NCBI GenBank assembly: GCA_040383665.1
Contig: JBEIDC010000005.1
Location: 353-64,352 of the forward strand
From: Caulobacter sp.
GTDB taxonomy: Bacteria; Pseudomonadota; Alphaproteobacteria; Caulobacterales; Caulobacteraceae
DNA: 64,000 bases
Direction: 5' to 3'
Made by a program: the position numbers and the translations under genes. Shown in pieces: positions 9,976 through 22,294 of the stretch. How positions within the stretch are numbered: position 1 is the stretch's first letter; the number at the start of each line of letters is the position of its first letter. A model generated the notes under the pieces. That model saw only the letters and a list, made by a program, of their open reading frames with translations. It was not told where the DNA came from and ran no database searches.

Positions 9976-9982
9976 TGGCTTT

Positions 9983-10153
9983 CCTCTCCCACTTGGGAGA
10001 GGGGACCAGCCGGAGGCTGGTGGAGAGGGACACGCCGCCGATCGTCGTGCGGGCGCAGCGTTCGACGCCATCTACTTCCCGGGCAGCCTTCAGCCGGAAG
10101 CGCTTCCCGCTCCACCATGCTCCGCATGGTCCCCCTCTCCCAAGAGGGAGAGG
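9983..10153. repeat. Gene-less copy of the cctctccc...gggagagg inverted-repeat element
   Basis: ~48-bp imperfect IRs at 9983-10030 and 10105-10153 between convergent stop codons. Confidence 0.85.
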
Positions 10154-19421: not shown

Positions 19422-21083
<1,662 letters not shown>

Positions 21084-21188
21084 GAAGTCCATAAAGTCGC
21101 CCATCACCAAAGATGGTTGGATCGGCGCAGGCCGATCCAACGCGGCGACATGGTCGTCTAGTCCAGGTCACCAACTGACTGAGATTGA

Positions 21189-21219
21189 GGGCGGTTCCGG
21201 AAACGGAGCCGCCCTTTTT
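21189..21219 (+). terminator. groESL terminator
   Basis: gggcggttccg/cggagccgccc stem plus T5. Confidence 0.85.
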
Positions 21220-21227
21220 CGTTTCTT

Positions 21228-21753
21228 CCTCTCCCCGTGGGAGAGGTGGCCCGGCGGAGCCGGGTCGGAGAGGGATGTGCAATCGTAAAGATTGTATTGC
21301 GAACAAAATAGAACTAATGATTGTGCTCCATGCAGTCGCAACCCTCCACACTCAAGCGCGCCCGCCGATCCCGTCAGGCCATGACGAAGTCCGAGACCAT
21401 CCTTTGGCAGGCTCTACGGGCAGGGCGTCTGGGCGGTCGGAAGTTCCGGCGTCAGCATCCGGTCGGAACTTACGTCCTCGACTTCTACTGCGATGCCGCA
21501 AGGCTGGCCGTCGAGGTCGATGGAGGAGTTCACGAGTGGGAGGATCGCCAGCTGAGCGACGCTTTCCGGGACGCGTGGCTCGCACAGCGCGGCGTACGCA
21601 CGCTGCGGCTGCCGGCGCGTCTTGTGGTGGAGAATACTCCCAGAGCACTGGCGATGATTGTCGAGGCTCTCGACTGGCGAGCGCCTTCGGGTCCGCCGCG
21701 GTGACTCCCTCTCCGACCTGGCTCCGCCAGGCCACCTCTCCCACGGGGAGAGG
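21228..21753. mobile_element. Putative compact element: DUF559 endonuclease gene between 48-bp terminal inverted repeats
   Basis: 21228-21275 and 21706-21753 are reverse complements at 46/48 positions. Confidence 0.7.
21330..21704 (+). CDS. DUF559 / very-short-patch-repair-like endonuclease
   Basis: MTKSETILWQALR...KFRRQHPVGTYVLDFYC...VEVDGGVH...RDAWL...GVRTLR. Confidence 0.92.
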   Translation: MQSQPSTLKRARRSRQAMTKSETILWQALRAGRLGGRKFRRQHPVGTYVLDFYCDAARLAVEVDGGVHEWEDRQLSDAFRDAWLAQRGVRTLRLPARLVVENTPRALAMIVEALDWRAPSGPPR

Positions 21754-21762
21754 ATAAAGAGC

Positions 21763-22128
21763 CTACTCCCCCCGCTCTTCCCTCGGCCCGATGACCATCT
21801 GGCCCACCCAGTTGACGACGCCCAGCACCACCGCGCCCAGCACCGCGGGCCACAGGCCGTCGACGCTGAAGCCCTCCAGGACCCAGGCGGTCAGGCCGAA
21901 CATCGCGGCGTTCACCACCAGCAGGAACAGGCCCAGGGTCAGGAAGGTCACCGGTAGGGTCATCCAGAACACCACCGGCCGCACCACCGCGTTGACCACG
22001 CCCATGATCAGGGCGGCGATCAGCAGCGTCTCGCTGCTGGTGATGTTGACGCCATTGATGAACCCGTCGGCCAGCCACAGGCCGGCCATGCCGACCAGGG
22101 TGCGCAGGATCAGGCGGATGATCAGCAT
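21763..22128 (-). CDS. YvlD/DUF360 'phage holin family' membrane protein
   Basis: GVVNAVVRP...TLPVTFLTLGLFLLVVNA signature. Confidence 0.88.
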   Translation of the reverse strand: MLIIRLILRTLVGMAGLWLADGFINGVNITSSETLLIAALIMGVVNAVVRPVVFWMTLPVTFLTLGLFLLVVNAAMFGLTAWVLEGFSVDGLWPAVLGAVVLGVVNWVGQMVIGPREERGE

Positions 22129-22145
22129 GGGGCATGCTCCGGATT

Positions 22146-22289
22146 CCCTCCCCGTCATGGGAAGGGTGACCCCGCGAGGCAGGGGCGTGTGGGGAAATAT
22201 GACGCCACAGCCGGACGGCTGGTGTCCAGCCCATCCTTGCCCCACCCTGACCCGCCGCGCGGGTCTGGCCCTCCCCATGACGGGGAGGG
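22146..22289. repeat. Degenerate gene-less copy of the ccctccc...gggaggg IR element
   Basis: 21-bp IR ends ccctccccgtcatgggaaggg / ccctccccatgacggggaggg. Confidence 0.75.
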
Positions 22290-22294
22290 AGGGC

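Follow-up and report, generated by a model that had tools for sequence, protein, structure and literature searches.

BoxC, PIT (potential intrastrand triplex) and TMECO repeats have been known since 1992 (Bergler 1992; Hoyne 2000; Holder et al. 2015, PMC4666352). They consist of a C-rich stem, a loop of 3 to 6 nt, a G-rich stem and a second G-rich block that can lie as third strand on the hairpin, with the published consensus CCCTCNCCC N3-6 GGGNGAGGG N3 GGGNGAGGG. They are intergenic and multi-copy, often occur as inverted pairs of two sub-types, and were shown in 2015 to mark unstable loci, but they still have no mechanism and no partner protein. The publications report no associated gene or mobility function: Holder et al. 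found no mobility genes near E. coli TMECOs, state that they never found transposase or integrase remnants, and do not mention ycjD. The latter is a DUF559 gene of E. coli next to fabI/envM, where BoxC was first seen, and we found a TMECO about 190 bp downstream of it. DUF559 itself is one of the large bacterial protein families of unknown function, and no paper that we found links it to these repeats.

Four other systems are relevant for comparison. In REP/REPIN-RAYT systems (REPtrons), a single nuclease-type gene coding for an HUH Y1 transposase (PF01797) is flanked by inverted copies of the genome's own dispersed palindromic repeat, the repeats occur mostly as gene-less inverted doublets, and protein clade and repeat family co-vary. 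Free-standing homing endonuclease genes of the Vsr-like EDxHD family (I-Bth0305I, PDB 3R3P) are small selfish genes with an E-x-D...H catalytic core and with presence/absence and replacement polymorphism at a fixed site between conserved genes. IS elements with MITE derivatives combine terminal inverted repeats, an autonomous unit and short gene-less units with the same ends. Finally, the C. crescentus protein VsrA (CCNA_02930), from the same order of bacteria and the same Pfam family as the protein studied here, is interpreted as a very-short-patch repair enzyme linked to the ScmA methyltransferase (PMC12907096). Two DUF559 proteins of C. crescentus are induced by DNA damage and one of them, VsrA, causes an SOS response in vivo, showing that such proteins are expressed and can damage DNA in vivo. 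Flanking repeats or mobility are not discussed in the passages of that paper that mention VsrA or DUF559, and we did not determine whether the vsrA gene is flanked by repeats.

We analysed a stretch of 64,000 nucleotides of Caulobacter sp. (contig JBEIDC010000005.1 of assembly GCA_040383665.1), hereafter the window, in which a small DUF559 nuclease gene is bracketed by two inverted copies of a foldable repeat (Table 1). A reading of the sequence alone had described 48-bp arms matching at 46 positions, with two compensatory mismatches and two hairpins per arm, around a single DUF559 gene just after the groESL terminator. This observation is real. A repeat search returned arms of 49 nt, identical at 47 of 49 positions (96% complementary) and 430 nt apart. 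The two mismatches are indeed a compensatory pair in the second hairpin, GGCCCGGC-GGA-GCCGGGTC against GGCCTGGC-GGA-GCCAGGTC, and both arms fold as two hairpins as single-stranded DNA with z-scores of -2.8 to -3.9. The 19-nt core of hairpin 1 occurs 4 times in the window against 0.06 expected. In 3000 random 320-bp segments of the same genome the best flanking inverted repeat score was 18.5, whereas this locus scores 44, so that a chance inverted repeat was rejected. The CCCGGC/CCTGGC difference is however not a local event, since the same arm pair frames related cassettes at other loci in other genomes.

Table 1. Coordinates of the cassette, of its parts and of related or flanking features (positions in the window; G numbers designate the genomes compared)
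Position	Strand	Feature	Observations
19437-21083	+	groEL	Flanking host gene on the other side
21189-21219	+	groESL intrinsic terminator (GC hairpin plus T run)	Cassette starts 8 nt after it; conserved in all relatives at this site
21227-21754		Whole cassette, 528 bp
21227-21275	+	Left arm	Hairpin 1: CCTCTCCC (21228-35), loop CGT, GGGAGAGG (21239-46). Hairpin 2: GGCCCGGC-GGA-GCCGGGTC (21248-66). Mirror "third strand" block: GGAGAGGGA (21267-75). DNA fold z -2.76
21276-21329	+	AT-richer leader/promoter region of the cassette	Contains GAAC-N6-GAAC (21301-21314), a weak look-alike of the alphaproteobacterial SOS box (GTTC-N7-GTTC)
21330-21704	+	DUF559 (Vsr-like PD-(D/E)xK) nuclease gene, ATG to TGA, 124 aa	Intact D51 / E62-x-D64 / H68 motif
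21706-21754	-	Right arm, reverse complement of the left arm (47/49)	Hairpin 2 carries the compensatory CCTGGC/GCCAGG pair; the stop codon abuts the arm
21763-22131	-	PF04020 gene (yvlD-like membrane protein), convergent	Flanking host gene used as anchor for the orthologous-site comparison; the cassette lies just before its stop
22145-22290		Gene-less paired element of another subfamily (CCCTCCCC / GGGTGGGG)	Between the PF04020 gene and nrdB; absent from G006 and G021, where other sequence stands at this place
9982-10153		Gene-less paired element (subfamily 1b), two inverted arms of the same architecture around a 77-nt interior	Between convergent genes; site polymorphic in relatives

Each arm has three parts: a pyrimidine/purine hairpin, a variable mini-hairpin with a GNA loop, and a G-rich block that mirrors the purine stem. 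The arms are not a new repeat but a variant of the published BoxC/PIT/TMECO intrastrand triplex motif (PMC4666352), a relation that the sequence-only reading had missed. The C-rich stem, short loop and complementary G-rich stem are present in the window as an 8-nt stem, and 147 such hairpins were found in the genome. To decide how the third block relates to the purine stem, we compared mirror and direct readings. A threshold of 7/8 was uninformative because of low complexity, but with exact 8/8 matching the third block was the mirror of the purine stem (A read as A or T) in 56 of 188 hairpins, against 5 for a direct copy and 5.5 for shuffles. Asymmetric families fit only the mirror reading, as with GGGAGAAG and GATGAGGG, and GAGAGAGGGA and AGGGTGAGAG. 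Only hairpins 1 and 2 could be predicted, triplex formation in vitro by CD or NMR not having been measured. The arms depart from the published motif in their 8-nt stems (CCTCTCCC) and in their second loop, the 3 nt of which are replaced by a spacer of about 20 nt that forms hairpin 2, and the exact published-type pattern had no hit in this genome. Related DUF559 clades do have the loop of 2 to 4 nt (DUF559 loci L025, L038, L079, L089 and L095). Hairpin 2 varies by double changes (80 cells, 95.8% paired), although this count is partly circular because the hairpins were picked by their inner 5 pairs, and its loops are C-GNA-G in 67 of 80 cases.

The protein matches the Pfam model PF04480 (DUF559, PD-(D/E)xK clan) with 98.1 bits against a cut-off of 20.6 (E 3.5e-28), over model positions 4-108 of 109. 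The NCBIfam model PRK09767 (YcjD family) gives only a partial match, 75 bits against a cut-off of 218, and the only other Pfam hit is a weak one to PF18741. D51, D64 and H68 are invariant in both alignments built (14 and 41 relatives), while E62 is invariant in the first and at least 90% conserved in the second. PDB entry 3HRL, a DUF559 structure, was found at E 1e-18. The AF2 model (pLDDT 84.9) has 3HRL as its best Foldseek match (TM 0.83), followed by the homing endonuclease I-Bth0305I (3R3P, probability 1.0, TM 0.71, 16-18% identity), its closest functional fold relative, whereas the Vsr structure 1VSR is a distant match (TM about 0.4). The gene is under purifying selection, with a dN/dS of 0.07 against the copy of genome G270. 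As to linkage to a C5-cytosine methyltransferase, expected of a Vsr repair endonuclease, no such gene is adjacent, the neighbours being groEL and the PF04020 gene.

The sequence-only reading had proposed testing whether DUF559 genes in Caulobacterales are consistently flanked by inverted repeats. We found that 42 of 50 DUF559 loci in Caulobacterales have an inverted repeat score of at least 20, against 0 of 3000 random controls. So do 20 of 30 loci in a phylum-wide sample and 47 of 76 in a sample of named genomes, roughly a third of DUF559 genes having no detectable flanking inverted repeat. Protein clusters map onto arm families, also across distant taxa, and canonical TMECO arms flank DUF559 genes in other clades. 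Over 151 genomes, the cross-tabulation of DUF559 against the canonical TMECO pattern gives 26/8/8/109 (odds ratio 44, p 2e-15), 8 of the 34 TMECO-positive genomes lacking DUF559.

We next examined whether the cassette is mobile. Loci L033 and L034 are 98% identical over 565 bp with unrelated flanks, and L009 and L031 are 85% identical exactly from inverted repeat to inverted repeat. Cassettes with the same arm pair as the window sit at other loci in genomes G225, G233 and G005. Empty groEL-yvlD sites in relatives had been called for as a sign of mobility, and syntenic, vertical inheritance as a sign against it. In 22 genomes this site carries five cassette forms in both orientations (three protein types plus two further reverse-oriented cassettes, one with own-type arms), three type-matched solo hairpins, one solo arm and one empty site. 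Cassettes in opposite orientation at this site are only 50-60% identical. The dS of the cassette is 0.74 against 0.04 for the adjacent groEL in the same genome pair, a difference of about 18 times, and copy number runs from 0 to 10 per genome within one genus. No target-site duplication was seen at the ends of L033 and L034 or at the groEL site, but as the exact ends are uncertain by a few bases this observation does not tell whether one is made. Finally, L201 in genome G013 is an internal-deletion derivative that keeps the 5' subterminal 30 nt and the last ~55 nt of the ORF.

The sequence-only reading had also proposed counting the repeat genome-wide and had assigned the same ends to the two gene-less elements of the window. 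The latter share the architecture but belong to other arm subfamilies, the true same-sequence arms (8 more copies) lying on other contigs. The genome holds about 121 arms against 2 DUF559 genes, so that most arms are gene-less, and some arm families, such as CCCTCCCC/GGGTGGGG, have no cognate gene. The interiors of the short elements of this genome show no similarity to the gene, which rules them out as recognisable deletion products of the window cassette; the evidence for deletion derivatives comes from G013 only. Arms are far more conserved than element interiors (83% against 59%, with a shuffled baseline of 55%), indicating that the arms themselves are under constraint. Three relatives that are 100% complete, G193, G229 and G240, have no PF04480 match yet hold 47, 17 and 42 arms of the 1b/3 pattern, respectively. 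Over 26 related genomes, gene number and arm number are uncorrelated (rho 0.21, p 0.29), and about half of the genomes with several arms of family 1a lack a close cognate gene. Thus co-occurrence is strong at phylum scale while no dose relation appears within the genus, and these observations point in both directions as to a dependence of the repeats on the gene.

The interpretation first offered, an autonomous/non-autonomous system resembling RAYT but built on a Vsr-like nuclease, is partly supported. As in REPtrons, the gene is flanked by inverted copies of a dispersed repeat that mostly occurs as gene-less doublets, and protein clade and repeat family co-vary. However, the enzyme is a PD-(D/E)xK nuclease, no PF01797 match exists anywhere in the 99.6%-complete genome, which excludes RAYT-dependent REPs, and the gene is multi-copy, site-polymorphic and horizontally replaced instead of being a vertically kept single copy. 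The repeats are triplex-type modules instead of simple REP hairpins, and they persist in genomes without the gene. Compared with IS elements and MITEs, the cassette has terminal inverted repeats, an autonomous-looking unit plus short gene-less units with the same ends, and an internal-deletion derivative, but no DDE, HUH, serine or tyrosine transposase, only DUF559 lying between the arms, and its ends are long (49-80 nt) self-folding modules. Compared with homing endonuclease genes, it has the fold, the motif and the presence/absence polymorphism at a defined site, but it is not in an intron or intein nor beside a conserved target gene, it carries its own structured inverted ends, it has gene-less multi-copy relatives, and its target is unknown, cleavage of the gene-less allele not having been assayed. 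Homing-like spread is at least as likely as RAYT-like transposition, a possibility that had not been considered in the sequence-only reading.

In our preferred explanation, which we hold with moderate confidence, the block is one copy of a small selfish cassette. Our analyses establish that the cassette is a discrete unit copied to unrelated loci; that it is gained, replaced and lost at the same intergenic hot spots just 3' of terminators between convergent genes; that it decays to gene-less paired arms by internal deletion and is lost by recombination between its two palindromic hairpin-1 copies, leaving a solo hairpin; and that its protein is kept by purifying selection, protein clades co-varying with arm families. 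Beyond this we only infer that the nuclease would recognise its own arm family when the arm is folded, in single-stranded or cruciform DNA, and would nick or cut there, and that host recombination or repair would then copy the cassette into other arm-bearing or terminator-proximal sites, in a homing-like spread without transposase chemistry. Gene-less arms would be relics or parasites of this process and could outlive the gene. No biochemical or genetic evidence shows that any DUF559 protein binds or cuts these arms, a preference of the protein for the repeat was not assayed, and a hydrolytic PD-(D/E)xK nuclease cannot by itself join DNA. Nothing shows that the nuclease drives the repeats, and the arms of the three complete relatives without DUF559 and the lack of correlation between gene number and arm number speak against a simple RAYT-like driver.

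The strongest competing view, which we consider possible but less likely, is that the arms are spread or maintained by something else, such as host replication or recombination acting on unusual DNA structures or an unidentified enzyme, DUF559 being a selfish or neutral cargo that lodges between paired arms and rides with them. The arms of the three DUF559-free genomes, the lack of a dose relation, the preponderance of gene-less arms, the constraint on the arms and the absence of mobility genes near E. coli TMECOs (PMC4666352) speak in its favour, as does the use of the same hot spots by a different nuclease gene (GIY-YIG) with different hairpin ends. Conversely, DUF559 is the only recurrent cargo, the other long-spaced pairs in this genome being one 72-aa ORF with no family and one chance pair. 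Moreover, cargo hopping between elements would erode the observed co-variation of protein clades and arm families, the presence of canonical TMECO is strongly tied to that of DUF559, and no alternative enzyme is known or seen.

It appears unlikely that DUF559 is a housekeeping or repair nuclease, either a very-short-patch repair enzyme like the proposed VsrA or a structure-specific nuclease removing triplex/hairpin blocks, around which the arms are incidental or serve regulation or insulation. Purifying selection, the Vsr-like predicted fold, the SOS-box-like sites upstream of some copies and the reported DNA-damage induction and in vivo phenotype (PMC12907096) are compatible with this view, but a housekeeping gene should be syntenic and single-copy, which disagrees with the copy numbers. 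The complete relatives lacking the gene, the divergent cassettes in both orientations at one site, the high dS of the cassette relative to groEL and the lack of an adjacent cytosine methyltransferase gene also speak against it. Still less likely is that flipping of the gene segment, programmed or recombination-driven, is the function of the arrangement. DUF559 is enriched (odds ratio 14.3) among predicted programmed-inversion targets (PMC9881135), cassettes occur in both orientations at the groEL site, and in the cluster-3 family the two hairpin-2 variants are swapped relative to the gene in some copies (L033, L034, L008 and L049 against L003, L009 and L031), so inversions between arms have happened. 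However, the promoter region lies inside the arms and flips with the gene, so that inversion changes nothing obvious, the opposite-orientation cassettes are too divergent to be recent flips, no invertase is linked, and inversion is an expected by-product of any inverted repeat of 50-80 bp. Sequencing reads were not examined for excision or inversion within a population.

What is new here is the association of a known type of repeat with DUF559 genes, the two travelling together as a movable, selectable cassette and thereby giving each other a testable partner. The locus and its relatives provide defined substrates, in the form of a 49-nt arm with defined hairpins, and defined alleles (filled sites, an empty site, solo-hairpin sites and a deletion derivative). 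A broader reading, doubtful at present but not excluded, is that DUF559 nucleases are the dedicated enzymes of BoxC/PIT/TMECO-type repeats, forming with them a previously unrecognised, phylum-spanning class of mobile DNA in which a minimal Vsr-like hydrolytic nuclease recognises its own folded triplex-plus-hairpin ends and spreads cassette and gene-less repeats through host repair. This would be a third nuclease/repeat partnership beside transposase/TIR and RAYT/REP. If the nuclease does act on the repeats, this would be a new way for selfish DNA to move without a transposase, and a structure-specific nuclease with possible use as a tool. If it does not, the repeats need another explanation and DUF559 is a remarkably successful hitch-hiker. 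The results also bear on annotation, as many intergenic "hairpins" after terminators in Alphaproteobacteria may be remnants of these cassettes.

No known RNA family was detected at gathering score between positions 20900 and 22400. A search for defence systems with PADLOC gave only a 47-residue nuclease-core match to DpdF at E 1.5e-7, which was not pursued. ScmA-type YGCCGGCR motifs were not seen in the few arm sequences inspected by eye, without a systematic search. As to SOS regulation, which is a lead only, the window has the N6 spacing, while a proper GTTC-N7-GTTC box lies upstream of 7 of the 52 DUF559 loci, for instance that of the G006 cassette at the same site.

We first examined the organisation of the locus in its own genome, a 3.33-Mb draft of 220 contigs with 68.7% G+C, whose closest named public relatives are Caulobacter and Caulobacteraceae MAGs. 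Between the groESL terminator and the stop codon of a convergent PF04020 (yvlD-like) gene lies a 528-bp block bounded by a 49-nt inverted repeat whose two arms are 96% complementary. The block contains a single ORF matching PF04480/DUF559 with an E-value of 3.5e-28, and its stop codon abuts the right arm. Each arm consists of a hairpin 1 with an all-pyrimidine 5' stem and an all-purine 3' stem (CCTCTCCC-CGT-GGGAGAGG), a hairpin 2 (GGCCCGGC-GGA-GCCGGGTC) and a following purine block (GGAGAGGGA). The only two differences between the arms are a C>T and its pairing G>A in hairpin 2, and both arms fold as two hairpins as ssDNA (z of -2.8 to -3.9). The observation of the sequence-only reading, that a DUF559 gene is bracketed by structured inverted repeats differing by two compensatory mismatches, was therefore confirmed. 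It is far beyond chance, since the best flanking inverted repeat (IR) score in 3000 random segments of this genome was 18.5, against 44 here.

Positions of the features discussed in the text, in window coordinates unless a contig is given
Feature	Position	Remark
groEL 3' end	21066-21083	18 nt
Insert after the groEL stop codon	21084-21161	78 bp
Near-copy of the groEL 3' end	21144-21161	18 nt, 89%, at the end of the insert
groESL terminator	21189-21219	
Interval whose orthologous sites were compared for GIY-YIG units	21220-21760	
Left arm	21227-21275	49 nt
SOS-box-like motif	21301-21314	N6 spacing
DUF559 ORF	21330-21704	124 aa
Right arm	21706-21754	49 nt
Second site with turnover	9982-10153	
Gene-less element	22145-22290	
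Pair of family-1b arms with another ORF, own genome, outside the window	C97:9997-10378	298 bp enclosed
DUF559 match in a long open frame, genome G013	C16:100371-100535	

A genome-wide count of the repeat had been put forward beforehand as a check. Our structural scan of the whole genome detected 121 arms of this architecture in at least eight sequence subfamilies, forming 34 convergent pairs, 31 of which have only 26-85 nt between the arms. The third block is the mirror image of the purine stem of the hairpin, with A answered by A or T. Using exact 8/8 matching, this relation held for 56 of 188 hairpins, against 5 for a direct copy and 5.5 for shuffled stems. Asymmetric families fit only the mirror reading: GGGAGAAG with GATGAGGG, GGGGGAAG with GATGGGGG, and GAGAGAGGGA with AGGGTGAGAG. 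This is the signature of a purine-motif intrastrand triplex, and it ties the arms to the BoxC/PIT/TMECO motif, CCCTCNCCC N3-6 GGGNGAGGG N3 GGGNGAGGG (Holder et al. 2015, PMC4666352), the difference being that the 3-nt second loop is here replaced by hairpin 2. The stem of hairpin 2 varies freely by double changes (80 double-changed cells, 95.8% paired), although these hairpins had been selected by pairing, and its loop is C-GNA-G in 67 of 80 cases. GNA loops closed by C:G are the classic extra-stable DNA mini-hairpins, which points to folded DNA, not RNA, as the relevant form. No Rfam family reached its gathering score in this region. The arms are much better conserved than the element interiors, with 83% against 59% pairwise identity, shuffled interiors giving 55%.

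Next, we asked whether DUF559 genes are consistently framed by such repeats in Caulobacterales, a point that the sequence-only reading had named as a test of its proposal. The only other DUF559 gene of this genome (C17, about 53-55% amino-acid identity depending on the tool and alignment span) is framed by arms of another subfamily with the same architecture. Among 41 Caulobacterales genomes, 34 have DUF559, with 1-10 copies each. Of 50 loci examined, among which loci L031-L050 were picked from multi-copy genomes, 42 have a flanking IR scoring at least 20. In an evenly drawn sample of 151 Pseudomonadota genomes, 20 of 30 loci are flanked, mostly by canonical short-loop TMECO arms. In named genomes, 47 of 76 testable loci are flanked, including loci from Sphingomonadales, Betaproteobacteria, Lysobacteraceae, Nitrospirales and Kiritimatiellae. 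Across the 151 genomes, DUF559 and the canonical TMECO pattern co-occur as 26/8/8/109 (odds ratio 44, p 2e-15, not corrected for phylogeny), and protein clusters map onto arm families. In E. coli, ycjD (DUF559) lies next to fabI/envM, the gene at which BoxC was first described (Bergler et al. 1992), and has a TMECO about 190 bp downstream and a degenerate hairpin at its stop codon. We found no paper that links DUF559 to these repeats, the nearest item being a table row listing DUF559 as enriched among predicted inversion targets (PMC9881135). In other lineages, several DUF559 matches (loci L077, L078, L079 on contig G175:C62 and L084 on G069:C2, and one in G013) lie in open frames of 368-2109 aa without stops, suggesting that the domain, or the cassette, is read in frame inside larger genes.

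We then looked for evidence that the unit moves. In G013, one of the genomes compared, two copies are 98% identical over 565 bp with unrelated flanks, and others are 79-86% identical exactly from IR to IR. Cassettes with the window's own CCCGGC/CCTGGC arm pair stand at other loci in genomes G225, G233 and G005. G013 has 50 arms of one family, comprising 6 gene units, several pairs of about 100 bp, solo arms, and one element (locus L201) that keeps the 5' subterminal 30 nt and the last ~55 nt of the ORF. L201 is an internal-deletion derivative. There is no read-level evidence. Whole short contigs consist of just the DUF559 unit (L170, a 518-bp contig of Phenylobacterium kunshanense with a coverage label of 75.8, and L181, a 2.1-kb contig of Caulobacter sp. 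D5 with a coverage label of 93), as expected if assemblers break at a multi-copy repeat. In the cluster-3 cassette family of genomes G002, G011 and G013, the two hairpin-2 variants (GCCGCGAAGCGGT and GCCGCCGCAGGCGGT) are swapped between the upstream and downstream arms in some copies (L003, L009, L031 and L032 against L033, L034, L008 and L049), while the subterminal TTTCA/TTACA stays with the gene, so the interior has been inverted relative to the outer arm parts.

The search for empty groEL-yvlD sites in relatives, likewise proposed in advance, was carried out on the orthologous site in 22 relatives, and one truly empty site was found among a variety of other states.

States of the orthologous groEL-yvlD site in relatives (G numbers denote genomes)
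State at the site	Genomes
Window's cassette type, same orientation	G270 (90% aa)
A second type (~59% aa), same orientation	G237, G234, G268
A third type (~51% aa), opposite orientation	G006, G281
Two further reverse-oriented cassettes, with own-type arms in G225 and other arms in G251	G225, G251
Solo hairpin 1 whose sequence and immediate flanks match each of the three types	G021, G229, G277
A solo complete arm	G194
Truly empty	G240
Unrelated inserts	G005, G235

The solo hairpins are best read as what remains after recombination between the two palindromic hairpin-1 copies. The loops of the two arms are related as inverted copies, not as direct ones, so hairpin 1 is part of the element and not a duplicated target. 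Vertical inheritance of the gene in a syntenic position had been named as an outcome that would count against the proposal. Between this genome and G270 (locus L104), the cassette has a dS of 0.74 while the adjacent groEL, compared over its 3' part, has a dS of 0.04, a difference of about 18 times. Even the 'same' cassette at the same site has therefore not simply been inherited with its flanks. The second site shows the same turnover.

Concerning the protein, D51, D64 and H68 are invariant in both alignments, whereas E62 is invariant in the 14-sequence alignment and at least 90% conserved in the 41-sequence one. The dN/dS ratio is 0.07 against G270, and the pN/pS ratio is 0.23 for two G013 paralogues. 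The nearest solved structure by sequence is 3HRL, a DUF559 protein (E-value of 1e-18). The AF2 model (pLDDT 84.9) matches 3HRL with a TM of 0.83, followed by the catalytic domain of the homing endonuclease I-Bth0305I (probability 1.0, TM 0.71), while E. coli Vsr is only a distant match. In C. crescentus, two DUF559 proteins are induced by DNA damage, and one of them, VsrA, causes an SOS response when a cytosine methylase is missing (PMC12907096), so such proteins are active in vivo. A GTTC-N7-GTTC / GAAC-N7-GAAC motif, the alphaproteobacterial SOS-box form, stands upstream of 7 of 52 loci (L010, L017, L027, L036, L041, L050 and L052), the window copy having the wrong spacing, N6.

The interpretation offered by the sequence-only reading, a RAYT-like autonomous/non-autonomous system built on a Vsr-like nuclease, was supported in part. 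Several results speak against a simple driver of this kind. Three 100%-complete relatives (G193, G229 and G240) have no PF04480 match in six frames, yet they carry 47, 17 and 42 arms of the commonest pattern, where the reversed-pattern control gives 0-2. Over 26 genomes, gene number and arm number are uncorrelated (rho 0.21, p 0.29). Genomes with many family-1a arms often lack a close cognate gene, 8 of 34 TMECO-positive genomes in the phylum sample lack DUF559, and the present genome has arm families without a gene. Arms therefore persist without the gene; whether they also spread without it is open. In addition, no target-site duplication was found at the ends of the 98%-identical G013 copies or at the groEL site, the exact ends being uncertain by a few bases, and a hydrolytic nuclease cannot join DNA by itself.

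The analysis itself demonstrates that the block is a discrete, selectable, horizontally replaced cassette with structured inverted ends, that it decays to gene-less pairs and to solo hairpins, and that it prefers sites just 3' of terminators between convergent genes. What we infer beyond this, and consider about as likely as not, is that the nuclease recognises its own arm family in folded form and cuts there, host recombination or repair then copying the cassette into sites that already carry an arm or hairpin, or near terminators. This would be a homing-like spread. Such a reading fits the fold relationship to a homing endonuclease, the co-variation of protein clades with arms, the repeated re-occupation of the same sites and the free orientation. 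The main rival is a passenger model, in which the arms are maintained by something else and DUF559 rides along, and this model fits the gene-free genomes. A role in host repair and an inversion switch are less likely.

The repeat class and the protein family are each known. Their partnership as a mobile cassette, the hairpin-2 variant of the triplex motif, the solo-hairpin remnants and the hot-spot turnover were not found in the literature that we could search. We place the cassette among selfish nuclease/repeat systems: it works like REP/RAYT or like a homing endonuclease gene, but it is a member of neither. That it represents a categorically new, nuclease-driven class is possible but doubtful.

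The pair of family-1b arms on contig C97 encloses a 72-aa ORF that matches no Pfam family, the only non-DUF559 cargo between matched arms in this genome. The gene-less element at window 22145-22290 does not sit in an otherwise intact spacer: where G006 and G021 have ~85 bp including a terminator-like hairpin after nrdB, this genome has the element instead, so insertion went with loss or replacement of the old spacer. The insert directly after the groEL stop codon, which ends with the near-copy of the groEL 3' end, contains its own hairpin, ggttggatcggcgcaggccgatccaac. It is present at this place in G270, G251 and G193 and absent from other relatives, and looks like another small insertion with target duplication. 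Finally, a different small nuclease gene (GIY-YIG, PF01541, E-value of 2.4e-14) occupies the same hot spots in relatives, at sites orthologous to window 21220-21760 and 9982-10153 (loci L117 in G235, L211 in G006, L215 in G270 and L216 in G268). It is framed by a different hairpin inverted repeat, ccgctcatcccggcgaatgccgggacccag and its complement, of which G268 has only the collapsed solo palindrome. This is the same life cycle with another nuclease.
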